Source: Naegleria gruberi
Taxonomy: Eukaryota
Direction: 5' to 3' (one strand)
Assembly (NCBI GenBank): GCA_000004985.1
Contig: GG738870.1
DNA length: 64,000 nucleotides
Shown: positions 7,279 to 58,281 of the stretch, piece after piece
How positions within the stretch are numbered: position 1 is the stretch's first letter
How the letters are laid out: the number at the start of each line of letters is the position of its first letter
The notes under the pieces: model-generated
Told to the model about the DNA's origin: nothing
The model's input: the letters and a program-made list of their open reading frames with translations, nothing else
The model's database searches: none
Made by a program: the position numbers and the translations under genes

Positions 7279-7936
7279 TTACAAAATATTGCAAGTCTTC
7301 TTTTTGGTTTTATCATTAATTCTCTGATTCTCCACCACTTCTTCATGCATATATGCCTTAATCACTTGTTCGAAAACTTCCTTAACTCCCTCCTGTGTCA
7401 ATGCACTACTTTCCATAAAGGCAAATGCACCCGTTTCCTTAGCGAGATTCATTCCTTCTTGTGTGGTGACTGGTTTCATTTCACGTTCTTCGAGGCATCG
7501 AAGGAAATCTTCATTCGTCCTTAAATCTTTCTTGGTTCCAACGAGGACGAAAGGTGTATGAGGATTGTGGTATTTAATTTCCTTTATCCATTTAGTTTGG
7601 ACATTGGAAAAACTATCTGGATTGACTGTGCTATATGTTACAAGGAAAACATCTGTATCTGGATAAGAAAGTGGACGAATTCGATCATAACTAAGTTTCG
7701 AAAAAAATTAATCAATAAAGAAGTGACTTTCTAACTTACTCTTCCTGACCAGCTGTGTCCCACATGGAAATCAACACAACTTCATTATTGTACTTTGTAT
7801 TTGCACTGTAATTATCAAAAACTGTTGGAATATAGCTGTCATCTGCTATTTTACCAAAAGCATAGCTCATTAACAGCATTGTTTTACCAACTGCACCATC
7901 TCCAACGCATACACATTTAATATTGATATCAGACAT
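7279..7936 (-). CDS. Rho-family small GTPase (Rac-like), CAAX = CNIL; 2 exons
   Basis: Exon 1 is 7740..7936 ([19 protein letters not shown]...WDTAGQE) and ends at phase 2 on a GTAAGT donor. A 49-nt intron (7691..7739) with a TAG acceptor gives exon 2 (7279..7690), which completes the invariant [17 protein letters not shown] motif. The C-terminus is KKKTCNIL, a geranylgeranyl CAAX box. Confidence 0.9.
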
Positions 7937-8242
7937 TTTGTTGTTATTGTTTTGAAGATTGAAAACCTAAGCATGCTACAGGATTTATGCCAAATGTCAA
8001 CTTGATACTGTTCCTTGTTCAATTATTTGAAAATTGAACTCATCTTACAAAAAATTGTGCCGCCCAAATGTAATTAAATAATGCTTGTTTTTGTACTATT
8101 TCTTTTCCACGATGGGGAATTGGCCAAATAAAAAAGTATGTGTTTTTTCATTAGTATTTGTGGATGAAGAGAGATTTTGATTTCCTAACAAATCTTGAGA
8201 TTGTAAAACTCACAATAAAACAATTTAACCAGATTTAAAAAA

Positions 8243-9508
8243 ATGGCTGAAAACAAGAAGCGCCTCTATTCCCAAACTTTTGATAGTCAACAAGAAGAAA
8301 CGGCATTAGATGAAACCTCCTCCGATCTAACAACCTTTCTTATAAACCACTACAATTATTCGAATCCCTCTTCCAGTGATGAAAGCAATCATTCTAACCC
8401 CTTTCTCAAATATCGTAAATTATCTAATGTTGTAATCAAAACAACTTTCAAGGATTTTTATTTAAATGATTTTATTGCAAAAAGAAGCGGGCTTTTAAGA
8501 AAGATGATTGATTCGAATAGTGAGTGGAATTTAGGTAAAGATGAAGAAGGAAGATTTATTATTGATTTGTGTCAAGTTCAAGATTCAATTGTGAGCAAAG
8601 ACGAAATTTTGGAAGAATCTGATTTTGAAATTATTTTCAAATATTTGTATTCTGATAAAATTGATGAACGGATTTGTGTTGGTGAAAATGGGGATTTCGA
8701 ACAGGCAAGGAGAATTGTTCAGCTCACAAAATATTTTGACATGAATTACATGTTAAAATCAATGTTGGATAGGAATAGTGGATTAATGGAGGATTTTTGT
8801 AGAATACAAGTTAAATCTTGGATGGAATTCAAGTTGACTGAAGAAGATTACTTTTTATTATTAAGATCGATAGAGGGAGAACAACCCTCAATAGAGCTTG
8901 CCAATTTAATATGTCAAGAATCAGAATTTCCATTTGATTGGAAATGTTATGTGTTAATTGAAGCAATCAAGACTCAAAATGGAATTGATGATATTAACCA
9001 GATTACAAAAGAAATGTTACAACCTGTTGAAAGGTCAATTGAATACATCAAGAATGAATCCAAGCGTGTTATCAAAGGTGGTCATTTTTTTACTAAACAC
9101 AAACAAATGGCTGAAATATTAGGAATACAGAACGAGGAAATAGATTACAAATCACTTCATTTAATCAATCAAACTACCCAATTTACACAATATTACAGTA
9201 CTTATTTTGAAAAAGAGCACCATTTTGAATTATTTGGTGGTGGGTTGAAAGTTTCTATTGAGAAAGCTGGAAGTCAATCATGGAACTATTTTCTTTCGAA
9301 AAATTTTGGTAATCAGGATGACAATGTTAAGGTAATATTCTATTACACAGTAGATGATGGCAAGACAATCAAAAAGGAAAGCTTTTTTTCTAAATATTGC
9401 AGGTGCGATTTTGATCTTGATAATGAAGAAGTGGTGTTTGGATTGTTGGTAATTTTAAATGTTCATGAGGGAAGGAAATCCACTAAAAATCCAACTTGCT
9501 TCTTGTAA
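8243..9508 (+). CDS. BTB/POZ-domain protein (BTB plus BACK-like helical region)
   Basis: This is a single ORF with its ATG at 8243. It has a BTB-type pattern (VVIKTTFKDFYLNDFIAKRSGLLRKMI...RFIIDLCQV...FEIIFKYLYSDKID), and the remainder is helical with no other recognisable domain. Confidence 0.55.
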   Translation: MAENKKRLYSQTFDSQQEETALDETSSDLTTFLINHYNYSNPSSSDESNHSNPFLKYRKLSNVVIKTTFKDFYLNDFIAKRSGLLRKMIDSNSEWNLGKDEEGRFIIDLCQVQDSIVSKDEILEESDFEIIFKYLYSDKIDERICVGENGDFEQARRIVQLTKYFDMNYMLKSMLDRNSGLMEDFCRIQVKSWMEFKLTEEDYFLLLRSIEGEQPSIELANLICQESEFPFDWKCYVLIEAIKTQNGIDDINQITKEMLQPVERSIEYIKNESKRVIKGGHFFTKHKQMAEILGIQNEEIDYKSLHLINQTTQFTQYYSTYFEKEHHFELFGGGLKVSIEKAGSQSWNYFLSKNFGNQDDNVKVIFYYTVDDGKTIKKESFFSKYCRCDFDLDNEEVVFGLLVILNVHEGRKSTKNPTCFL

Positions 9509-9545
9509 AACAATTAATAGCCAATTTAGGAAATTTTTAAATAAT

Positions 9546-10180
9546 TTAATCAAATTTTGAATATGGGTGCGGTTTGATACCTGAACGTGACATGATCATC
9601 TTCTTTGACCAATCTTTATCCTTTTGTGACATGCAGAATGCTTGATATCTAAATGTTGTATCCTCACAAACCTGTTTAGAAGCAACTGTATAATAAGTAT
9701 GGAAAAATGGTAATAAAGCAGAAACCAAAGATAATGCAACTGAAAAATAGATTACTTTAAATCCTCTCGTAAAAGCTGTTTGTGTACTAATGTGATGAAG
9801 TTGTGGTGTTTTGAAGTACCATGGATAAAGGAATGAAACACCCAGTCCAAATGCTGTAGGTCCAAATATGTTAAATGATAAATTTCTAGTTTGTTTCAAT
9901 TTTTGAATTAATTCAAAATCTAATGGAAATAATTCCTTAAATTTATCCATAGTACTCTGTGATACTTCCAAATTGTCTCCTAACCATCTATATGTTTGAA
10001 AATGTTCATACGATTTAAATACTAAATATCCAAAACTTATAAAGTATCCTGTCAAATACTAAATTTTGACAATTAATTATCAAGTAATTTGAAAAATACC
10101 TTATGAATATGGGTGAGAGAACTCACCATTCTCTTATTTCTAAGTGCCCATAAATCTTGTAATTTACCAGGTTGAGACAT
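9546..10180 (-). CDS. Small predicted membrane protein (about 189 aa); 2 exons
   Basis: The ATG is at 10180 and exon 1 (10127..10180) reads MSQPGKLQDLWALRNKRM before a GTGAGT donor. A 68-nt intron with a TAG acceptor gives exon 2 (9546..10058) at phase 0. There are two or three hydrophobic segments (GPTAFGLGVSFLYPWYF, VIYFSVALSLVSALLPFF). I assign no family. Confidence 0.45.
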
Positions 10181-13800: not shown

Positions 13801-14210
13801 AAAGAGAAGATGCTCGTTTCCTTGAATGTGCTGCTGCTACCTGTAATGCTTTGAGTGCTTTATTCAAATGTGTGACATCAAGACAAGTTTCTCAAGCAGA
13901 TAATTTCATACAATTTTGGTTCAAGAGTTTACCAGCTGCTGGTGATATGATCGAAGCTAGAATTGTTCACGACAACCTTATTAACCTTGCTAAACAAGGT
14001 AATCAACTTATCTTCAGTGATTTGACACATCTCTTCCGTGTATTTGCTCGTATTCTTGATACTGAAGCCATAAGTATGGAATCACAAATTACAAGTATTC
14101 AAATGATTAAGCAAATGCAACAACAACAACCACAAGCTGTCCAACAAGCTCTTTCTCAATTATCTCAAGAAGAAGCTAACAGACTTATCTCAATTGTGTC
14201 TAAAAATTAA
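10891..14210 (+). CDS. Importin-beta family nuclear transport receptor (karyopherin beta-3/importin-5/Kap121-like); 2 exons
   Basis: Exon 1 is 10891..11052 and ends ...SQHIH at a GTAGGT donor. A 53-nt intron with a TAG acceptor gives exon 2 (11106..14210, stop TAA). The N-terminal importin-beta motif and HEAT repeats are colinear with IPO5 (for example VRGLACVLLRKVI... against IPO5 ARQMAAVLLRRLL). The antisense ORFs 11976..12722(-) are spurious. Confidence 0.85.
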
Positions 14211-14247
14211 ATACGTCAAAAAATAAATTATTAATAATTATTAAAAA

Positions 14248-15319
14248 AATGATTGAACTTGAATCGGATAGCCTTGAAAAGTTTGTCTCGGAAACCAAAT
14301 GTTTTTGTTTAGATTGTGATGGAGTTATAGTACGAGGTTTGTTTTGTTGTTTGCATTGTTAAAGACCTTCCTCCATCATTGTACTGTGAAATTTAAAATT
14401 AAAGGAACAGAATTAATTCACAATGTAAAAGAAACATTGGAAGATTTAAGAAAATTGAACAAAAAGATCTTTTTCATTACCAACAATTCATCAAATTCAA
14501 GAAAAGGATATTTAAAGAAATTCCAATCTTTAGGACTTGAAATTGATGTTGTAGGTTTTTAAATTTAAATACCTGAATTTTAAATTAGAAATTAACAAGT
14601 CTGAAATATTGTCATCCTCATATGCAGCTGCTGTTTATGTGAAAGAACACGGAATTAAAACAGCCTACGTAATTGGAGGTGATGGAATCAAAGAAGAATT
14701 ACAATTAATTGGAGTTGAAGCTGCTGCATTTGATGAACATTTAGGTAAACCATTAAAAGAAGAAGAATTTATGGGAGAATGGGAAGAGTTTACAAAAAGA
14801 TATCCAGTTGACAAAATTGGAGCAGTCATTGTTGGATATGATAATAGATTCAATAACTTTAAATTAGCAATGGCACATCAAATTTTGAGAGAAAATCCAA
14901 ATTGTTTATTCATTGCAACAAATACTGACGCAACTCTTCCTTACAAACAAGGTTTGTTCTTACCAGGAGGTGGTTGTTTTGTTTCAGCACTTTCTACATG
15001 TATTGGAAGAAAGCCAGATATTGTTGCTGGTAAACCTTCAACCTTACTACTTGATACTGCACTCAGTATTCTCTATCATGATTCAGAAAATCAAGTTACA
15101 AGTGAAAATAAGCATGAAACTGTTTGTATGGTTGGTGATAGATTAGAAACTGATATTACACTTGGAAATAGAGTTGGTGTGAAGAGTGTTTGTGTTTTAA
15201 CAGGTGTTGCTCACAGAGATCAATTGGATCAAGTCATTGAAAAACAAGAAACTCTTCAAATTCCTCAATTTTTGCTTTCTAGTTTTGGTGTTATTCATTC
15301 TGTTTTGAATAAAGAATAG
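14248..15319 (+). CDS. HAD-superfamily IIA phosphatase (phosphoglycolate/4-nitrophenylphosphatase, PGP/Pho13-like); 3 exons
   Basis: The exons are 14248..14336 (MIELESD...DCDGVIVR, ending at phase 1), 14405..14550 and 14600..15319. The introns are 68 nt (GT...AAG) and 49 nt (GTAGGT...AAG). The spliced protein carries the HAD motifs DCDGV(I)VRG, FITNNS and GDRLETD. Only 37 bp separate it from the upstream importin stop codon. Confidence 0.85.
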
Positions 15320-17409: not shown

Positions 17410-18495
17410 ATGTCATCAATTATTATTGCAGGTCTCGGAATGAGATCAGTCATCAAAGTTGAAGGTCCAAACGTTTCTCTTCAAACTCTTTTAAAGGATT
17501 TTTGCGAAAAGAATAAAATCAATCCCGAACAATATGGTTTATTACATAAAAAGAAGGATCTTGATCTATCACTGCGTATGTATTTGTTTTTAACTCATCA
17601 TTAAATAATTTAATTTAAATAATGATAGCATTCCGTTTGAGTGGAGTTTCCAACAATGCAACAATAGAAGTAATCAAGAAAGCAACATCATCAACTGTAA
17701 AATCAGCAGCAACTTTGGGACTTCAATTACCAGATGGTCAAAGACTGAAATCAATGTATCCTATTGATATTTCATTGTGGATTGCTTTAAAGAGATTTGA
17801 AAAGAAGGAAAATGTTAATCTCACTCTTGTTGAAGATAAATCAGGCAAATATAGCATTCCTTCACTGATCTATATGAATCAAGAATTTAAAACTTTGGAA
17901 GATTTAAAGAAGACTAAATTATCTGATATTGGTTTGAGAGATAATTCAACAGCCTTGTTACGTTTAAATTTTGTTTCAACAGATAAAACAATTGAAGAAC
18001 TTAGGGATGAAATTGAGGAAACCGATGATTTTGTACCAAAGAAGAAAGTTAAAATTGAGATACACAAGTCACACAACAACAAACAGAGGAACTCCAAGTG
18101 ATATTTTGATGGTGGATGATTTTTCGCCNNNNNNNNNNNNNNNNNNNNNNNNNNNNNNNNNNNNNNNNNNNNNNNNNNATCAAGAGACACCAATTTACAT
18201 GTACATTGCACCACCAATCAAAAGATTTGATGACCTATCTCAGACTTTGAAAGATGCAAATTTAATTCCAGCTTCAATTATCAATGTAGGATTAGATAGA
18301 AAGAATCCAAAGAGTGAATCATTTGAATCTCCAAAATTGAAAACAGATCTTTTGTCACAAGTCACAGATATTGAACTAGTTAGTGTTCCAAAGAATGAAA
18401 ATGTTCCAACTCCAACCCCAACCACAACTAAAAGTGCTAAGAGTGAAAAGAATGTAAAGAACCTTCTCTCCAAATTAACAGGAAAGAGACATTAA
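17410..18495 (+). CDS. ASPSCR1: TUG/ASPSCR1-type UBX-domain protein (tandem N-terminal UBL domains, C-terminal UBX), interrupted by an assembly gap
   Basis: Exon 1 is 17410..17575 (VIKVEGPNVSLQTLLKDFCEKNKINPEQYGL...DLSL), aligning to TUG UBL1. A 53-nt intron (GTATGT...TAG) leads to exon 2 from 17629 (PFRLSGVSNNATIEV, then LQLPDGQRLKS, the UBL2 region). After the N-run the frame becomes +1 and encodes the UBX C-terminus (ETPIYMYIAPPIKRFDDLSQTLKDANLIPASIINVG), ending with a stop at 18495. The join across 18100..18180 cannot be resolved. Confidence 0.7.
18129..18178. other. Assembly gap (50 N)
   Basis: This is a run of N inside the TUG-like gene. The missing part of the UBX domain and the frame change across the gap imply that the true gap is larger or hides an intron. 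Confidence 0.95.
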
Positions 18496-36526: not shown

Positions 36527-36580
36527 AGGAAAGTGTATTAAGAAAACCATACCATTGATGCATCAATTATCTCAATATGA

Positions 36581-36651
36581 AGGGAGATAGTTCAGTGGTA
36601 GAACATGGGATTGTGGTTCCTAAGATCAGGGTTCGATTCCCTGTCTTCCTA
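36581..36651 (+). tRNA. tRNA-His (anticodon GTG)
   Basis: The sequence folds as a cloverleaf: acceptor AGGGAGA/TCTTCCT, D arm GTTC/GAAC, anticodon stem TGGGA/TCCTA with loop TTGTGGT (GTG at 34-36), T arm CAGGG-TTCGATT-CCCTG, and discriminator A. There is no genomically encoded G-1 (A at -1). A T5 run starts 5 nt downstream. Confidence 0.9.
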
Positions 36652-36655
36652 CACC

Positions 36656-36660
36656 TTTTT
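36656..36660 (+). terminator. Pol III T-run terminator for tRNA-His copy 1
   Basis: TTTTT lies 4 nt after the discriminator base. Confidence 0.6.
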
Positions 36661-41398: not shown

Positions 41399-41404
41399 AA
41401 AAAA
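41399..41404 (-). terminator. Pol III T-run terminator for tRNA-His copy 2
   Basis: TTTTTT on the minus strand lies 4 nt after the discriminator base. Confidence 0.6.
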
Positions 41405-41407
41405 GGT

Positions 41408-41478
41408 GTAGGAAGACAGGGAATCGAACCCTGATCTTAGGAACCACAATCCCATGTTCTACCACTGAACTATCTCCC
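41408..41478 (-). tRNA. tRNA-His (anticodon GTG), inverted identical copy
   Basis: This is the exact reverse complement of 36581..36651, with all 71 positions identical. The -1 position is again A, and a T6 run follows on the minus strand at 41399..41404. Confidence 0.9.
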
Positions 41479-41640
41479 TTCATGTTATAGAGAATCCAAG
41501 CCAAGCATTGATGATAATAAAATAATGATTAAAAATAGATTCGAAAAAAATTATTCATACAAGACGAAGATCACATACAAAAAATTACCGTCATCAAGAT
41601 AATATTTAGGGCTGAATAATTATTAACTTAAATTTTAACA

Positions 41641-45730: not shown

Positions 45731-46780
45731 ATGGCTGTAACAGGAAAACCATCAAGCAGCTCTTCACGGAGGACTAATAGTGCACCTAAACCAACATCAA
45801 TATTAAGCAGGAAGGATGTTGAAATTAATAGTAAATACAAAAGAGAACCAACTTTTGTAGATTTGTATCATCAACAAGGTATGTTTCTCCAAGTCCGAAA
45901 ATAAGATCTTATACTTTCTCAAATAGCAAGAGATGCAAAGCTCTACTATCATCAACACGGAAATAGAAATGTTCAGCTGGACTATACGCCCAATAATAGT
46001 TTTGTTGAAAAAAGGGAACCTCACTTTGTGGATTACACAAAAAAGGGACAATATTTCAATAGATTATCGACATTAATTAATGATCAACCATCCTCTTTAG
46101 ATTATACTCCAAATTATTCATATCTTCATGAACGAGTAAAGGGAGGTATAAATATGAGAAAGTCAACAGATAGAGAAACTCATTTTCATAATATTAATGA
46201 AGGGAAGAAACAACAAACAAAAGCAGTAGCATATGTAACACCAAAATCATCCTTAATAGACGATCAACAAAATAAGTTTGTTAAAAGATCTACAAATATT
46301 TATCAAGGAAAAGAATCTCATCCACCTGATTTTTTCAGAACTACCTCAAGAAAAGAAGAAAAGAAGCCAGACACTTCGAACACTAATTATACGCCGTCAT
46401 ATTCTTTAACAACAAGCAGAACAACCCACTATTACGATTTTGAAAAGACAACAGACAGAGAAAAAGCAAAGACATCATGGATACCTTCAAGGTCTCAATT
46501 GGGTAAACATTACGATGTTGCTTATGATGTTGTTGAAATACCTTCCAAAAACTATGTAAATATGAAACGATCAGCTGGTAGAACTGCTCCTAAAAAAGGA
46601 GTAACAGTGGATTTATCTTATACTCCTATTCACAAATTAACAGAGAAGAATTTGGGATGGTCAACTGATTTATTCTTATCTACTGGAAGGGCTGATGATG
46701 TAAAAGCGATAACACAGAGTGCAGATAACTTGGTAAGAAGAGTAAGAGGAGAATTAAGAAAATTTAATAATTCGGAATAA
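45731..46780 (+). CDS. Hypothetical protein with five [D/N/S]YTP motif repeats; 2 exons
   Basis: The ATG is at 45731, and exon 1 (45731..45878) ends at phase 1 on a GTATGT donor. A 48-nt intron with a TAG acceptor gives exon 2 (45927..46780). The motifs LDYTPNNSF, LDYTPNYSY, NYTPSYSL and LSYTPIHKL recur every 30-60 residues. The track's GTG 'M' at 46028 is internal. Confidence 0.5.
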
Positions 46781-46786
46781 ACTCAT

Positions 46787-49332
46787 TTAATTCTTTCGTT
46801 TATAGAAGTAGAGGTAGCCCATATCGAAAGGTGTGTTTTCACTTTGTAAAACTTTGCTATCATTAAACAAAACCCATCTCTTTTCACCATTTCCAACATC
46901 CTTCTTGAGATGGCAAACATAGTGACCACATGAAGTATTTGAACCCATATGACTAATGAAACCAACAAGTTCATACTTTCCACTTCCATCCAAATACTCT
47001 TCTTCTTTCTTTTCAGCTGGTTTTTCATTAGAAGCTTCATTAAGATAACTGTCCATATCATCCATATGACTGAAGAGCCATTCAGCAGCTCTTTCAATAT
47101 TGTTTTGAGTTTGCTTTAAAGCAACAACAGCATGAGTGGAAGGGAAACCAAGATTAGCTAGTGATTCAATGGCATCAGCAGAAGGAGCATTTCCTGATGA
47201 GCTCTTTTCTTGTTTAGCTTCAGGAAGTGGATTATCAATTTCAGGATCATCACAATGCTCAAATACCCATTCCATAGCCTCATTGACACCCTTATTGTTG
47301 GATTTCCAAGCACCTCTCTTAGCTCTATTTTCTGGAATTCCCATTTCTACCAAAGATTGAACGATTTGCATATCAACAAAAATGGATTCTGTCTTCTTTT
47401 CATCACTTGGAAGTTCTTGTTCATTTGGTTTAAGTCCAGTTCCTCTGAGATGAGTAATATCAATCTCTTCAGCATCAGTAATAAATACATCCAATTTCTT
47501 TGGAACCCATCCATCTAAAATAAACTTTCTTACTTGAACAGCCAAATATTGTGGGAAAGTTGCAAGACTAGTTTGTTTCAAGCCAATAGTATTTCTTCCA
47601 AGGGCAGAGCTATAGAAATGATCAACAGGTTCTGTCTCAGCAAAGGCTTCAATACACTTAGACATTGGAATCATTGGTCTAATTTGTTGTTTCTTTTCAG
47701 TACTTGTACTCAAAGGCTTGCTGTTTATATTCTCAGCCAATTTGAGTTCTTTTTCTATTCTTTCTCTTTCCTTCTCTTGTTTACAGAACTCTTCATATTC
47801 TGCCTTATTGGTTGCTTCAGAAAGTGGAACTGGGAGTGAAATCAAATTATCCTTTCTGTAAGTATATTTAACCTTAGATGTTTCTGAGCATTCAATTCTT
47901 TCTTCCACATTGTAATTGAAAATACTATTTACAGAGTCTGTACAGTTAATTCTCTTGTCTTCTCTTTCGATTAATTGGAGTAAGTGTTGGTAAAATTCTA
48001 CAGCATCTTGTTGTCTCATAGTGCTGAACTCTGGATGGCCCTTTCCAACAACATTCTTGAATGATCTTGGTGGAATACCTTCTTGGAATGAATCGACGTG
48101 CTCTTCTGACTTGGAATAATCTCCAGAAAGTAATCCATTAGCGAGTTTTGCCATTTGAAGAGAGAAAGTATCCAATGAACTAGATCCTGTATAACAAGAC
48201 AATTCCTTATCGTGATATCTTTCTTGAACTTCTGGGAATGAGAAAAGAGTTTGCATGACACTAGCCAAATAGCAAGAATTACCAATGTTCTTCAAACCAG
48301 TAAAACCTGGCCCATACATTGGTTGCAAATGCTTATCAGATTCTTGAATTCTAGTAAAATCAAAGTTCAAATTTTGGTCCAATTCCATTTCAGCCATAGT
48401 TTTAGTTGTTTTCTTCATTTCTCTGATATTAATTCCAAAATATTCCAAATGTTCAACAAGCTTGGAATCCTTAACCATCTTATCTTCAGCATATGAATAT
48501 ACGTCAGCCTTTGGTTCTCCGTTATCATCCAATTGAATAGTTCCCAATTTGACACAAACAGGGAATCCAGTCTTTTGATAATGTTCAACAGCATGATTAT
48601 TACCACCAGTACCATCCCAGAATTTTCTACCACATCCAATATGACCGTCAGAAAGATTCAACCAAAGATTATCTGTGATATCACACTCAGCACACTTCCA
48701 TCCATGAGCTGGGACTTTAATATTTCCAATTTGTTTAAGCTCCATAGTATGTTTAGATTCAGTTAACTCTTCACCTTCCCATTTGAGAACTTCTTGTTTA
48801 CGTTCTGCAGATTGGTTTTCCAAAATACCTTTAATTGAAAGTTTAACTTTCTCAGGTAAATCATTATTTGGTAATGGTATTACAACATTATTTGGTTCTA
48901 ATAATACAAGTGACAACAATTCATCATAAAGTTTTTCGTCATTTTCTTCCTCTTCTTTGATTTGGAATCCTCCTTCAACACCAATAGCCATTTTGGTTGG
49001 TTGATCTTCAGATTTTTCTTCAATAGGCTTTTCCTTCTTGATCTTTTTAATATTCAAGAATACAGTATTACCAGTTAATTGATGATGTCTTCTTGTGTAC
49101 TTTGGAGAGAAAGCCAAGAATGTATTCAAACAAACATTGATTCCTCCTTCCGATTTCTAATGATCAAACCAATAAAAGTTACTTTTATACACAAGTTTAA
49201 AAACAAATATACTTACTGGTGAATCAAAAGAAAGACAACATTCTTCCTTATGAATTGGAGTATGACTAGTTGGAATATTGATCCTGCTAAAATCAAACTT
49301 TAAAGAAGAAACATCAACGTGGGATTGAGACA
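46787..49332 (-). CDS. USP5: Ubiquitin carboxyl-terminal hydrolase 5/Ubp14 (isopeptidase T): ZnF-UBP, USP catalytic domain, two UBA domains; 2 exons
   Basis: Exon 1 (49216..49332) reads MSQSHVDVSS...KEECCLSFDSP and ends on a GTAAGT donor. A 60-nt intron with a TAG acceptor gives exon 2 (46787..49155). The protein is colinear with human USP5: the ZnF-UBP motif HGWKCAECDITDNLWLNLSDGHIGCGRKFWDGTGGNNHAVEHY, the Cys box GLKNIGNSCYLASVMQ, two UBA domains and the His box GHYVCHLKK. Confidence 0.9.
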
Positions 49333-49524
49333 TTTTTTTTGTTCTAAATTTAATTTTATGGTTCCTCTCACTTGTAATGATCAGTCTTTGTTATCCAGAT
49401 GTTCAATTGCTATTTGTAAGAAGTTCTTGTTTTTCGGGTTCAACATCACACAAGAAGGCTTTTTTTCATCATCACTTGCATCAAATATAAACATAAATAA
49501 ATTTTAATTAATTTTATTAAAAAA

Positions 49525-51618
49525 ATGAGTACACTTTATCAACAGGTACCAAAATATATTATTCAAGATGAATTGACGAATATTGTTCAGAAGAGAGAGG
49601 AAAAATATATTGGAGGGAAAATTGGGAACGATGTTATTCCAAGACACTTGACAATATGTAATCAATCTAGAGAATGTATTTATTTTTCTGAGCAATCGGA
49701 AACACTTTATTATATTGATGCTCGTCAATCAACTATGAAAAATATTAAACATGCTAAAATACAAAAGGTAATTAATTTGGAATGGGAATTTATTAATAAT
49801 AATTAAATAGATCCTAAAGACTGATTTGATTTTAAGAAATATTAAACAAATTAGTTATAATAGCAGTGGAAATAGATTATTAGTAATTAGTGACTTTGAT
49901 ATTAATGTTATTTCTATTCCAGAATATAAATCTGGTGATTCCGAATCGGTTAACACAACAATAGAATTTTCTCTTTCTTTATTAGAACACTCTAGTCAAA
50001 ATGTAAAAGTTTCTTGGCATCCACTCAGTAATGATCATATTGTTGCTCTTGATAGTGATTCAATTTTAAGAATTATTCAAGTTAGTTCTGGTAAAATTGA
50101 AGAAATACCTCTCTTAGAAAAGACAAAAGATTCTGTTGCATCATTTTCATTTGGATCTAAGAAATTATGGGAACGTTTTACCATTTACCTTACAACAACG
50201 ACACAAGCATTATTTGCTCTATGCCCAATTATTCCAAGTGGATGTGTTGTTTCGGAAAAATTCTTAGCTGATATTGTTAACAGTACCTATAGTTTTGAAA
50301 TGGAATCGGTCAAACATTTTTTTAGTGGAATTATTTCAAATGTATCTGATGATGAAGAGAATAGAGAAGTAACCTTAAAAACATCCACAAAGGAAAATCA
50401 TGCATTCAAAAACAGGATAATTCCAATCCACAATAAGAAAGTATCGAATTTAGATATAGCAGATATGATTACAATTAATCAAAATTCCAATTTACCATCA
50501 TGTCTAGTAACTGTAAACACAAGTGGAGTTATTCATCTTTTTGTAATTACTGACAATATTAGACCTGTATGGAAAAAAAAGTCATTCGATGTAAACGTAT
50601 CACCACAAGTTATTGAAGCTAGTTGTATACAAGAGGTTTTAACAGGAGATAAAATGAATAGCTCACTGCCTCCTTATTTAACTTTACATCCATTATCTAT
50701 TGAGACAGTTTATTGCGTTCATGAAAGAGGTGCTAATGAAATTACTTTCCCATTTATTTCTACTATGTTTACAGAAAAAATTGCTGCTATCCAATTTGAG
50801 AAAACCGTCTCTTGCCCTTTATTTATTTCTACTGAACTGTATGTACAATTTTATCATATTTCAACTTATTATTGTTTAGTGTTGAGCCTCCTAAAGCCTT
50901 TGATATTTTACACGACATTTTATATGGTACCACAATCTTCTATATTGAGAATAAGAACCAACGTGTGTTAATTTCCTCTGCAAATATTCCTGTTATATAT
51001 GACAATGAAGAAAGTTGTACTTCAGTCTATAATTCTGATTTCTCCAATGCACTTGATAATATTGTCAACAATCTTCACAAACCAGTCCAAATTAATAAGG
51101 GTTGGAATAAGCTTGAACTTCCATTTATTCAAATTTCTGAAAATACAGCTGTTGCTGACGAACTCATCAGCTTTACCCTCCAAAAGTTGAAAAAGATGGC
51201 AGAAACTCAGAATAGACATCAACAATCACTCGAAAAGTTGACTGTGATGGATACTCAAATGAGACAAACTCAGAATAATATCGATGACAAATGTAAGAAA
51301 TTATATGACAAACACAAAGAATTGCATGATAGAATCAAAAGAATCTATGAGCTTGTTTTCGTAAGAGAGCTCAATAAGGAAGAAAAACAATTTATCAAGG
51401 ATATTAGAGAAAAAGATAAGATTATCAGTGCTTACAAACAAAAGTTAGAAAACACTAGACAAGTTTTAGAAAATTATAAGGATAAACCAATCAATACCAA
51501 CCAAGAAAGCAATAACTACACTCCTGAAATAATGGAAAAGATTACCACTTATATGGATAAGACATCAAGGATAATTGAGGCTACAAGAGAAGAATTACTT
51601 TCAATAAAGCAAAAATAA
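49525..51618 (+). CDS. Nup88/Nup82-like nucleoporin (N-terminal beta-propeller, C-terminal coiled coil); 3 exons
   Basis: The exons are 49525..49767 (GTAATT donor), 49811..50838 (43-nt intron; GTATGT donor at phase 2) and 50880..51618 (41-nt intron). The propeller segment VSWHPLSNDHIVALDSDSILRIIQV parallels Nup88's [25 protein letters not shown], and the C-terminal roughly 170 residues are coiled coil, as in Nup88/Nup82. Confidence 0.6.
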
Positions 51619-51619
51619 G

Positions 51620-53491
51620 TTATTCATTTTTCTTTTGCAGAATTGTGTCACCTAAACGAACTTTTTGTCCTTTGTGAAGATTGAATTCTAAGCGATCTTC
51701 TTCATTGCTTTCAAAAATGAGGATAATGGTTGAACCAAGTTTGAAATAACCTAATTCTTCACCCTTCTCTATCGAAAGACCTCCTTGAACATAATTTCTT
51801 GACAAAACAACAACTTCTTCACCTTGTTCTGGATCCTTGATGTGCTCTTCCTTTGTCTTCTTATCTACAAGTTCAACCTTTTCAGTTTGAGTTGGTTGGG
51901 CTGGTTGAGATGGTTTGGTCTTCTTCTTTCTTGGTCTCTTTACATTGGTTCTCAAAGAATTATCAAAGTTTACAACACATGACCCCACATTCAAAGCACC
52001 AACAATAACATAATGCATGTTACCATAATCCCATTTACCATTAAGAACAACTCTTTCATTTTGTGTGTACAAATTAGGATACTTGTTCAAATAGAGAGGC
52101 ATGACAGGATAAAGTTTACCATAAATATGTTTTCTTGACTCTACAGTCATATCACAAGGGCTGTGGAATCTGTGATAATCACCAGGAGCCAAATATAATA
52201 CACAATAATGTAATTGTTTCTTTTGCTTTGTGTTTTGATTGTTGTTCGATACAGCAGCTTGATCATGTTCCGAATATTCTTCTCCAATAGTAATTTCTTC
52301 ATCTTGTTGTGGTTGATATCCATTACGCTTTGAAAATACAGAAAAGTGATTGTTAAATGTAATGTTTTGTGACTTTTCCTTTTGTAATAATTGTTGCATT
52401 GAATAAGTTACACCTTTAACTTGTGGAAGGTAAATATGTTCATAGGTTTCATCCAATTGGTCAAGTTCAACAGATAATGTACCAAATCTTGCAACTGTAC
52501 CATCGACAGGAGAAACCATTAGTGATCTTTGATATTCACGTTCAATATCATTCAAGTCAGCATTTTCATCGAGATGGATCTTTCTCAGAATCTTTCTCTT
52601 GTGTTGAACACTGAGTGAAGGTCTTGTTGTTGGTTTTAATTTTCTTGAGAAAAAGTCTTGAAGACTGGCATATTCTTCTAACGGCTTTTCAATCTCTTCC
52701 ATATTTACATTATAAAACCAACCATAGGCATTATATACCAATGGTCTAAGTATTTCTGGACGAAGTTCTGTGCTTCCGATATTACCCCAACATCTTGATA
52801 TAAAGTTTGTTGGAATAGCCTTTGATAATAATTGTAAAAAGGTTTGCTTTTCTGGTTGTTGGTGTAATTGTTTTTGTTCCTCCAAGTCTACTAAAAAGTC
52901 ATCATTGATATCGGTCATGTCAAGATAATTAAAGAAGGATCCTAGTATTAGTAGTATGGTGGATGTTGTTGCGGCACCCAACAAGAAATATTTGAAGAAT
53001 TTTTTTATGTAACCTTTTTTCTTCTTCTTTGGAGGTTCTTGGTTGTTCGATGAGTTATTATTACCACCCCTGTTATTGGTGCTGCTACTGGATGATGATT
53101 TTTCATCACCTGTTGTTGTTGTAGTGCTAGTAGTAGAAGTTGTAGAAGATGGATTGATTCCTGTGGAAGTATTGTTATTATTAGAGGTAGACATGACAGG
53201 AATTGAATGATGATATAATCTTTTAGAATTAATAGAAATCATCGGATTATTTAAATTCATAGATGACACTGAATGATTTAGACTTGTTGAAAAACATCTC
53301 CAACTTTGATTTAAATTACTAGTGTTATTATTAATAATAGAATTAGAAGCAGTAAAACCAGATGAAATGATATTACTACCAACAATATTGACAATAGGAT
53401 TACTCGAGGAATTTGATGAATTGATGAAGGAAGCCGAGTGCAAGCTCTTCTTGATAAGTTGAGCCTTCTTTAATGCAAAACACTGCTTCAT
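51620..53491 (-). CDS. Phosphatidylserine decarboxylase proenzyme with a long low-complexity N-terminal extension
   Basis: This is a single ORF with its ATG at 53491. The PSD core is present (YLAPGDYHRFHSPCDMTV, VVLNGKWDYGNMHYVIVGALNVGS) and the self-cleavage site GST lies in FKLGSTIILIFES. Its stop codon (51620-51622) is 1 nt from the stop of the convergent Nup88-like gene. Confidence 0.85.
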   Translation of the reverse strand: MKQCFALKKAQLIKKSLHSASFINSSNSSSNPIVNIVGSNIISSGFTASNSIINNNTSNLNQSWRCFSTSLNHSVSSMNLNNPMISINSKRLYHHSIPVMSTSNNNNTSTGINPSSTTSTTSTTTTTGDEKSSSSSSTNNRGGNNNSSNNQEPPKKKKKGYIKKFFKYFLLGAATTSTILLILGSFFNYLDMTDINDDFLVDLEEQKQLHQQPEKQTFLQLLSKAIPTNFISRCWGNIGSTELRPEILRPLVYNAYGWFYNVNMEEIEKPLEEYASLQDFFSRKLKPTTRPSLSVQHKRKILRKIHLDENADLNDIEREYQRSLMVSPVDGTVARFGTLSVELDQLDETYEHIYLPQVKGVTYSMQQLLQKEKSQNITFNNHFSVFSKRNGYQPQQDEEITIGEEYSEHDQAAVSNNNQNTKQKKQLHYCVLYLAPGDYHRFHSPCDMTVESRKHIYGKLYPVMPLYLNKYPNLYTQNERVVLNGKWDYGNMHYVIVGALNVGSCVVNFDNSLRTNVKRPRKKKTKPSQPAQPTQTEKVELVDKKTKEEHIKDPEQGEEVVVLSRNYVQGGLSIEKGEELGYFKLGSTIILIFESNEEDRLEFNLHKGQKVRLGDTILQKKNE

Positions 53492-57922: not shown

Positions 57923-58281
57923 ATGGATCAAGACTTCATTGACTCAAGTTATTTCTCAAATGATCTGACAAAGTCTAATAACATCAAGTCATGTATTAGA
58001 ATAGTGTTCAAGTAGGTAATACCAGTAGTATTTTACGTGAATTTTATCATGAGCTTCCAAAGAAACATTCTAAGGGAGGTCAATCTCTTGAAAGATTTGC
58101 TAGAAATAGAGAAATTGCCAAGAATGAATATCTAAAGATTATTGCAGAGAAGGCAAATTCTTTATTCGTATCGCCAACTTTGAATGCTCCAACTGTAGAT
58201 GCTATTATTCTTGCTGGATGTGCTGAATTGAAGAATGAATTACTTTCTCTCAAATCTGATTGTTTGGTAATAGTAAAATAG
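57923..58281 (+). pseudogene. Eukaryotic release factor eRF1 remnant (NIKS-region fragment plus middle-domain fragment), frame-broken and internally deleted
   Basis: A stop-free frame over 58000..58281 encodes NSVQVGNTSSILREFYHELPKKHSKGGQSLERFARNREIAKNEYLKIIAEKANSLFVSPTLNAPTVDAIILAGCAELKNELLSLKSDCLVIVK*. This aligns residue by residue with eRF1 domain 2 ([56 protein letters not shown]...[26 protein letters not shown]). A different frame over 57923..58015 encodes MDQDFIDSSYFSNDLTKSNNIKSCIRIVFK*, which resembles the NIKS loop region of domain 1. No canonical splice joins the two frames, and about 100 aa of eRF1 lying between them, plus the N- and C-terminal parts, are absent. Confidence 0.5.

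Follow-up and report, generated by a model that had tools for sequence, protein, structure and literature searches.

The stretch of DNA analysed here, in the following called the window, comprises 64,000 nucleotides of contig GG738870.1 from Naegleria gruberi; in agreement with this origin, a search with its sequence gave a match of 100% identity to a protein of this species. Between positions 45,731 and 53,491 it carries two pairs of bona fide protein-coding genes, which in both cases lie on opposite strands with their 3' ends facing each other (Table 1). Pair 1 consists of a YTP-repeat gene and a USP5-type ubiquitin hydrolase gene, and pair 2 of a Nup88-like nucleoporin gene and a phosphatidylserine decarboxylase (PSD) gene. 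Reading of the junctions base by base reproduced the stop-to-stop distances of the initial annotation, 6 nt for pair 1 and 1 nt for pair 2, and the four introns (48, 60, 43, and 41 nt) all fall within the 38-60 nt given there.

Table 1 Coordinates of the two convergent gene pairs, their poly(A) hexamers, and two further tight junctions.
Feature	Position	Strand	Details
YTP-repeat gene	45731-46780	+	exons 45731-45878 and 45927-46780; 333 aa; stop TAA 46778-46780
YTP gene intron	45879-45926	+	48 nt, GTATGT..TAG
Pair 1 spacer, stop to stop	46781-46786		6 nt, ACTCAT
USP5-type ubiquitin hydrolase gene	46787-49333	-	ATG 49333; 828 aa; stop TAA (tta) 46787-46789
USP5 gene structure	exon 1 49217-49333, intron 49157-49216, exon 2 46787-49156	-	intron 60 nt
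AATAAA containing YTP stop	46776-46781	+	candidate dual-use stop/poly(A) signal
ATTAAA containing USP5 stop	46786-46791	-	candidate dual-use stop/poly(A) signal
Second ATTAAA for USP5	~46760-46765	-	21 nt downstream of stop, within YTP coding sequence
Nup88-like nucleoporin gene	49525-51618	+	exons 49525-49767, 49811-50838, 50880-51618; 669 aa; stop TAA 51616-51618
Nup88-like gene introns	49768-49810, 50839-50879	+	43 nt, 41 nt
AATAAA in last five codons of Nup88-like gene	51603-51608	+	starts 13 nt ahead of stop; 7 nt between
Pair 2 spacer, stop to stop	51619		single nucleotide, G
PSD gene	51620-53491	-	single ORF, 623 aa; stop TAA 51620-51622
Third convergent junction	9506-9548		+ stop 9506-9508, 37-nt spacer, - stop 9546-9548 inside ATTAAA
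Tandem junction	14208-14251	+	importin stop 14208-14210 inside ATTAAA; spacer 38 nt, AATAAA 14224-14229
HAD/PGP-type phosphatase gene start, tandem junction	ATG 14249	+	

The genes and their ends

The name of the USP5 gene is backed by its Pfam domains, which follow the USP5 (isopeptidase T) architecture with zf-UBP_var, zf-UBP (2e-18), and UCH (9e-48) and two inserted UBA domains (UBA_7/UBA, in two stretches). The UCH domain reaches residue 776 of 780 and profile position 254 of 254, four residues ahead of the stop, and the C-terminus ...YKRK(N/D)* is common to four relatives, with orthologues of 834 and 833 aa sharing this C-terminus. Likewise, the PSD gene deserves its name from a PS_Dcarbxylase match (5e-49) extending to residue 618 of 623 (profile position 197 of 198). 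LGST is the C-terminal self-cleavage motif of the PSD family; in the translation it is followed by a 39-residue tail to the stop, and the C-terminus matches those of N. lovaniensis and Willaertia (P0007, P0008, P0009).

A Pfam search with the Nup88-like protein gave no match. Its sequence profile matched solved Nup88 chains in the PDB over the N-terminal part (9hcj_W0, E = 1.2e-21; 9sob_W, 5.8e-21), along with Nup82 (5cww_B, 2.8e-4), which supports the Nup88 label. Nup88/Nup82 proteins combine an N-terminal beta-propeller with a C-terminal coiled coil; the profile match falls in the former region, and the coiled coil is a prediction from the sequence alone. The spliced protein is collinear with its Willaertia homologue across intron 2, their alignment ending 6-7 residues short of either terminus at most, and the alignment with the N. 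lovaniensis orthologue reaches residue 666 of 669.

The YTP protein aligns end to end with proteins from N. lovaniensis (P0003, 62-63% identity) and Willaertia (P0004, 43-45%), while Pfam and PDB searches with it gave no match. A search among 1.84 billion proteins yielded only 19 representatives of the family, and the YTP protein belongs to a family of orphan proteins restricted to few lineages. One distant member showed a sub-threshold match to the SHIPPO repeat (E = 0.0099), too weak to be used.

From the domain ends and the homologues we conclude that all four stops are genuine gene ends. The case that the initial annotation had named against itself, a hidden 3' intron moving one of the stops, is ruled out by the domain ends and by the homologues from N. 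lovaniensis and Willaertia magna, and the terminal ORFs of both pairs have high coding-potential scores. The public annotation is inferior to these gene models at both loci. Its model NAEGRDRAFT_68100 (467 aa) shortens the Nup88-like gene by retaining the 41-nt intron 2 and stopping at 50971, and the annotation misses the YTP gene, for which no N. gruberi protein was found among the homology-search matches. With public models wrong or absent at both loci, tight junctions are under-counted in the annotation.

Two further junctions had been listed as tight. The 37 nt at the third convergent junction (spacer 9509-9545) were confirmed, and both flanking ORFs score as coding, their ends having been checked at the sequence level only; the labels "BTB" and "membrane protein" were not confirmed, as neither ORF has a Pfam match. 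The tandem junction between the importin gene and the PGP-like gene is indeed tight, but its spacer is 38 nt and not 37 nt, since the ATG lies at 14249.

Poly(A) signals at the stops and the predicted transcript overlap

According to a direct RNA-seq report on N. gruberi (PMC11529991), the median 3' UTR is 39 nt and very short UTRs occur, the top hexamer AAUAAA lies 15-20 nt upstream of cleavage, and a U-rich downstream element is found at 3' ends. AAUAAA there overlaps 11-13% of stops ("dual-use"), for which the median UTR is 22 nt. In pair 1 both the YTP and the USP5 stop share bases with such a hexamer (Table 1), while this is the case for neither stop of pair 2. The AATAAA at 51603-51608 is the sole AWTAAA between -30 and +100 of the Nup88-like stop, with AATAAG at the stop itself. 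Around the PSD stop no AWTAAA was found between -30 and +100, the stop itself carrying just the variants AATGAA and AATAAC, and therefore the 3' end of the PSD mRNA is not predictable. In the window as a whole stops overlapped by AWTAAA are enriched, with 10 of 31 putative terminal stops, taken from a rough ORF-based gene map in which internal exon ends may be included, while for TAA trinucleotides in general the share is 8.2% (binomial p = 1.2e-4).

In the 30 nt past each of the four tight stops T makes up 47-57%, while the other stops average 38%, which is consistent with the U-rich downstream element described in the same report (PMC11529991). A-richness of the final ten codons of the tightly paired genes, tested as a possible source of a U-rich element for the partner, was only marginal (Mann-Whitney p = 0.046, n = 4), and this result is not relied on.

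Comparing the 1-nt and 6-nt spacers with the published UTR lengths of 22-39 nt, we strongly infer that the mRNAs of each pair overlap, antisense to one another, at their 3' ends. The initial annotation had held that 3' UTRs and poly(A) signals of convergent partners overlap on opposite strands. For the UTRs this is to be expected from the published lengths (PMC11529991), but the two hexamers of pair 1 are separate and lie 4 nt apart. What must fall in the coding sequence of the partner are the cleavage sites and the UTRs.

Cleavage sites were predicted from the distances published for the species, with the signal 15-20 nt ahead of cleavage (PMC11529991). The YTP mRNA would accordingly be cleaved near 46796-46801, in the last 3-4 codons of USP5, and the USP5 mRNA near 46766-46771, or at ~46740-46745 via the second ATTAAA, in the last YTP codons. 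The predicted complementary overlap of the two mRNAs would amount to roughly 30 nt and at most ~60 nt. For the Nup88-like mRNA cleavage is predicted ~5-10 nt beyond the stop, inside the PSD coding sequence, and a PSD UTR of at least 2 nt would reach into the stop codon and coding sequence of the Nup88-like gene. A UTR of 5-10 nt, as it follows for the Nup88-like mRNA, would be unusually short and counts against the prediction.

We give a probability of about 80% to the reading that these are ordinary convergent protein-coding pairs, whose spacers have shrunk to nearly zero since 3'-end formation in this organism requires very little dedicated DNA. The last codons of each gene would then double as 3' UTR and downstream element of the partner, and the overlap would most simply be a neutral by-product of compaction. 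The unusual 3'-end formation suggested before is superfluous, as the known dual-use stop/poly(A) signal accounts for pair 1. With an overlap of this kind a rearrangement would also be unlikely to separate the partners, and this would account for both pairs staying together in related species.

Spacer lengths and alternative explanations

The window contains nine convergent junctions with spacers of 1, 6, (21 or 434), 37, (42 or 654), 45, 107, 143, and 151 nt and a median of 42-107 nt, depending on two uncertain ORFs. The divergent, promoter-bearing spacers are several-fold longer (155-2017 nt). Under an exponential distribution matched to the convergent spacers of the window, the probability of at least two out of nine gaps being 6 nt or shorter is 0.05-0.26, so gaps as tight as these are not clearly more frequent than expected by chance. 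Since convergent spacers in the window run short generally, the pairs form the tail of a continuous spacer distribution. With 82% of it in coding-like ORFs, the window is very dense, and to this extent the initial annotation was right; its "strongly streamlined" nuclear genome does not agree with the figures for the whole genome. With ~41 Mb and 15.7 thousand genes, the genome of the free-living N. gruberi is not a reduced one. An Rfam scan of the window returned three tRNAs only, and an assembly gap lies at 18129-18178, away from the pairs.

The convergent arrangement of both pairs is kept in relatives, while the tightness varies from -2 to 91 nt and is not conserved. Pair 1 is found tail to tail in Willaertia magna with a spacer of 4 nt, in the metagenomic relative L005 with overlapping stop codons sharing two bases (-2 nt), in N. 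lovaniensis with 73 nt, and in another Naegleria with 91 nt. Pair 2 lies tail to tail in N. lovaniensis with a 9-nt spacer and the PSD stop again inside ATTAAA; no synteny of pair 2 was found in Willaertia.

This persistence, for pair 1 even across genera, would fit an overlap that is a selected regulatory device, where a sense/antisense duplex of ~30 nt or polymerase collision leads to mutually exclusive expression or provides input for RNAi, and tail-to-tail antisense regulation has been documented elsewhere in eukaryotes (e.g. PMC3004915, PMC2262095). We find such a device, and with it the mutual regulation considered in the initial annotation, unlikely. The spacer is free to vary among relatives in both pairs (6 nt in pair 1 and 1 nt in pair 2 of N. 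gruberi against the values above), which argues against selection for tightness, and pair 2 lacks synteny in Willaertia. Convergent spacers in the window are generally short and do not single out these pairs, and the pairs staying together is accounted for equally well by there being no room for a breakpoint. Furthermore, no function evidently connects the partners, which are a nucleoporin and a lipid decarboxylase in one case and an orphan protein and a deubiquitinase in the other. Even less probable in our view is the bolder form, in which the pairs are evolutionarily locked sense/antisense units that survived from Naegleria to Willaertia because the ~30-nt duplex or polymerase collision couples expression negatively. 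If true, such coupling might act, for example, at the amoeba-to-flagellate switch, should the orphan YTP protein be flagellar.

The tight spacing could in principle also be an artefact, caused by a misplaced stop (a missed 3' intron or a non-coding ORF) or by spacer DNA lost in assembly, and the public annotation would agree with this, as it ends the Nup88-like gene ~650 nt from PSD and has no gene at the YTP position; the assembly gap mentioned above shows that the window is not free of gaps elsewhere. This reading is largely refuted and very improbable, since collinearity with the homologues extends across the disputed intron and as far as the C-termini, the terminal ORFs score high for coding potential with Pfam domains ending at the stops, and the junctions recur in independent assemblies of other species, at 4, 9, and -2 nt. 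Finally, the mRNAs might merely abut, with cleavage at or just past the stop and UTRs of about zero length. The AATAAA that ends 7 nt ahead of the Nup88-like stop shows that signals can sit in coding sequence, and very short UTRs are among those reported for N. gruberi (PMC11529991), but a signal-to-cleavage distance of 15-20 nt puts every candidate site past the 1-nt or 6-nt spacer, and in pair 2 the two UTRs would have to sum to at most 1 nt, which makes abutting mRNAs hardly credible.

Relation to known systems

The closest known system consists of the dual-use stop/poly(A) signals and ultrashort 3' UTRs of Giardia, Spironucleus, and N. gruberi (Genome Res 2024, PMC11529991), described for the same organism and the same signal. 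The likeness lies in the hexamers sharing bases with the YTP, USP5, importin, and 9546 stops, as well as in the 10 overlaps among the 31 putative stops of the window. The passages of that report which deal with UTRs and signals treat them gene by gene, without convergent neighbours serving as mutual UTRs, and no relevant study of convergent or overlapping genes in Naegleria came up in literature searches. What the present pairs offer are concrete loci where coding sequence must, on the preferred reading of compaction, also serve the gene on the opposite strand as its 3' UTR and downstream poly(A) element. They differ from the dual-use system in that two of the four genes, Nup88-like and PSD, have no AWTAAA over the stop.

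In microsporidia and nucleomorphs spacers are too short for termination signals, transcripts enter neighbouring genes, and the overlap stabilises gene order; such overlapping transcription in compacted eukaryotic genomes was reportedly described by Williams et al. in 2005. The N. gruberi pairs resemble these cases in having a spacer too short for termination signals, with transcripts that would run on into the neighbour and an overlap that would stabilise the gene order. However, microsporidia and nucleomorphs have highly reduced parasite or endosymbiont genomes with often multigene transcripts, while the free-living N. gruberi has a large gene set and retains canonical AAUAAA-directed cleavage, and only the 3' tips of its transcripts are predicted to overlap.

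Tail-to-tail cis-NATs of Arabidopsis, S. pombe, and fungi (e.g. PMC3032780, PMC3004915, PMC2262095) likewise involve convergent protein-coding genes with mRNAs complementary at their 3' ends. Their overlaps usually extend over tens to hundreds of UTR nucleotides, and some of them have been shown to be regulatory. In the N. gruberi pairs the predicted overlap is ~30 nt and includes coding sequence. Overlapping coding genes of viruses and prokaryotes show a similar packing without dispensable spacer, and in L005 the stops do share two bases, whereas in the N. gruberi pairs no coding nucleotide is shared, stops included. Set against these systems, the two pairs represent the extreme end of an already described and ordinary gene packing in N. 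gruberi, real and of low novelty, and they illustrate what short 3' UTRs and dual-use stops are known to entail rather than a new mechanism.

Stop-codon spacing and gene models at the convergent junctions

The stops of two convergent gene pairs had been placed 6 and 1 nt apart in the initial annotation, and direct reading of the bases bears this out: the YTP-repeat and USP5-type genes (pair 1) are separated by ACTCAT, and the Nup88-like and phosphatidylserine decarboxylase (PSD) genes (pair 2) by a single G. A third convergent junction, described as 37 nt wide, is so (stops 9506-9508 and 9546-9548), and the names given to its two ORFs, BTB (8219-9508) and membrane protein (9546-10058), are unconfirmed since a Pfam search returned no match at E <= 0.01 for either. 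The tandem gap 3' of the importin stop, claimed to be 37 nt, is 38 nt because the next ATG, that of a HAD/PGP-type phosphatase gene, lies at 14249. Within this region (14208-14251) an AATAAA at 14224-14229 would put importin cleavage approximately at the downstream ATG, so that the phosphatase promoter and 5' UTR must sit inside the importin gene.

Coordinates of the genes at the two tight junctions, with poly(A) hexamers and predicted mRNA ends, and of other features in the window
Feature	Coordinates	Strand	Stop codon	Structure	Product	Hexamer	Predicted mRNA end
YTP-repeat gene	45731-46780	+	TAA 46778-46780	one 48-nt intron	333 aa	AATAAA 46776-46781	~46796-46801
USP5-type gene	46787-49333	-	TAA (as tta) 46787-46789	ATG 49333; intron 49157-49216, 60 nt	828 aa	ATTAAA 46786-46791	~46766-46771
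Nup88-like gene	49525-51618	+	TAA 51616-51618	introns of 43 and 41 nt, donors GTAATT/GTATGT		AATAAA 51603-51608	5-10 nt beyond stop, within PSD gene
PSD gene	51620-53491	-	TAA 51620-51622	continuous ORF			
Assembly gap	18129-18178			50 N			
tRNA-His(GTG) genes	36574-36660 and 41400-41486			87-nt inverted repeat			
eRF1-like ORF	58000-58281	+		93 codons			

The possibility that an unrecognised 3' intron had shifted a stop was checked at each end, and all four stops stand. In the USP5-type protein the UCH domain reaches profile position 254 of 254, 4 residues short of the stop, and its C-terminal ...YKRK(N/D)* is shared with four relatives, N. lovaniensis and Willaertia magna among them. In two Naegleria relatives an intron interrupts the USP5 gene some 60 codons from its stop (N. 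lovaniensis, L001 11386-11452; another Naegleria, L003 7249-7309), where the N. gruberi ORF (46787-49156) is uninterrupted; its final 61 residues align at 74-82% identity, and the presence of the intron in congeners implies gain or loss within Naegleria.

The PSD domain reaches profile position 197 of 198, 5 residues short of the stop, and the C-terminus agrees with the N. lovaniensis and Willaertia proteins and with the public N. gruberi model. In this public model (P0007, 533 aa) translation begins 82 residues past the first ATG of the ORF, and the 8 residues VKRPRKKK, which the continuous ORF and the proteins of N. lovaniensis and Willaertia contain, are absent; the missing stretch looks like a 24-nt intron called in error.

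For the Nup88-like gene the two-intron model is the sole sensible one. The alignment with the Willaertia homologue (725 aa) spans the second intron junction and ends within 6-7 residues of both C-termini, that with the N. lovaniensis orthologue runs up to residue 666 of 669, and a two-sequence profile matches solved Nup88 chains (E = 1e-21). The spliced product is identical to the N. gruberi protein NAEGRDRAFT_68100 over the first two exons (100%), but this 467-aa public model keeps the 41-nt intron (50839-50879) and stops at 50971 with loss of the C-terminal 246 residues, which is why the 1-nt junction is not visible in the public annotation.

The YTP-repeat protein aligns over its full length with annotated orthologues in N. 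lovaniensis (337 aa) and Willaertia (341 aa). No N. gruberi protein was present among the homologue-search matches, and the gene therefore appears to be unannotated in this species. The public N. gruberi gene models are thus deficient at both 49525-51618 and 45731-46780, and corrected models are a practical by-product of the analysis. The protein carries repeated (D/N)YTP motifs, and its family is small: when a profile was run against 1.84 billion representatives it found just 19 proteins at E <= 0.001 (7 at <= 1e-10), and searches of Pfam and PDB gave no match. One distant member (1333 aa) has a sub-threshold match to sperm-tail PG-rich (SHIPPO) repeats, a faint hint that the protein might be flagellar.

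Poly(A) signals and predicted transcript ends

A direct RNA-sequencing study from 2024 with N. gruberi among its species (PMC11529991) gives a median 3' UTR of 39 nt, a signal 15-20 nt before cleavage, and a downstream U-rich element and an upstream UGUA as auxiliary elements; it describes AAUAAA as overlapping about 11-13% of stop codons (“dual-use”), for which the median UTR is 22 nt. The pair 1 stops lie within AATAAA (YTP) and ATTAAA (USP5), and the stops at 9546 and 14210 are likewise within ATTAAA. Among 31 putative terminal stops in the window, 10 are overlapped by AATAAA (4) or ATTAAA (6), whereas the rate for TAA trinucleotides overall is 8.2% (p = 1.2e-4). The proportion with ATTAAA seems higher than one would expect from the published figure, which centres on AAUAAA. 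The Nup88-like hexamer falls within the final five codons, and scanning from -30 to +100 around the PSD stop revealed neither hexamer.

When the published distances are applied to the hexamer positions, the predicted ends would make the YTP and USP5 mRNAs complementary over about 30 nt, each other's last codons included. A PSD UTR of at least 2 nt would run into the Nup88-like gene. The T content of the 30 nt 3' of each of the four tight stops is 47-57%, against a mean of 38% at other stops, consistent with the partner's last codons, rich in A, providing a U-rich element downstream; a direct test of A-richness in these codons was marginal only. The reading proposed in the initial annotation is supported in part: from the 1- and 6-nt spacers and the published distances we strongly infer transcript overlap in both pairs, while mutual regulation of the partners would be speculative and is probably not required.

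Spacing across the window and in relatives

A rough coding-potential map puts 82% of the window within coding-like ORFs, at about 33% G+C throughout, with three tRNA genes and one assembly gap. The nine convergent spacers are 1, 6, 37, 45, 107, 143, 151, 21 or 434, and 42 or 654 nt, the last two hinging on the reality of two small ORFs; several other convergent ends are fixed by the point where a Pfam domain finishes or, at 7279, by a Ras CAAX box. Divergent spacers range from 155 to 2017 nt. Under an exponential matched to the window's convergent spacers, two gaps of at most 6 nt among nine have P = 0.05-0.26. The two pairs are not outliers; spacing is tight in general, and they form the short end of its range.

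Three other features were observed. The assembly gap lies within a run of plus-strand coding ORFs and prevents completion of the gene model at that point. The two tRNA-His genes are 99% complementary and flank a 4.7-kb segment with three protein-coding genes (CBS-domain, LRR-like and one other). The eRF1-like ORF, with a good coding score, matches the middle of eRF1 domain 2 alone (19-93 of 133, E = 2.5e-17) and sits in the 434-nt space between EGF-like and aldo-keto reductase genes, ending 21 nt from the aldo-keto reductase stop. This ORF may represent a pseudogene or a gene fragment, or else belong to a multi-exon gene that has not been recognised.

In relatives the pair 1 spacer is 4 nt in Willaertia magna, 73 nt in N. 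lovaniensis, 91 nt in another Naegleria (L003/L004) and -2 in a metagenomic relative, where two bases are common to both stop codons (TTTTAATC). The pair 2 spacer is 9 nt in N. lovaniensis, with the PSD stop there too within ATTAAA, and the genes are not adjacent in Willaertia magna. Orientation and adjacency are thus conserved and spacer length is not. This pattern does not fit selection for a particular overlap; it fits neutral shrinkage together with protection from rearrangement, since a breakpoint would find no space between the genes. Also in Willaertia, 27 nt separate the AAA-bromodomain gene from the YTP gene (L002 9973/10001).

Comparison with known systems

A literature search found no paper on convergent overlaps specific to Naegleria. 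Transcript overlap caused by compaction is classic in microsporidia and nucleomorphs (reportedly treated by Williams et al. in 2005), and tail-to-tail antisense pairs are common across plants and fungi. For N. gruberi itself, both ultrashort UTRs and dual-use stop/poly(A) signals have been reported before (PMC11529991), and the two pairs are a well-documented further instance of an already known phenomenon.
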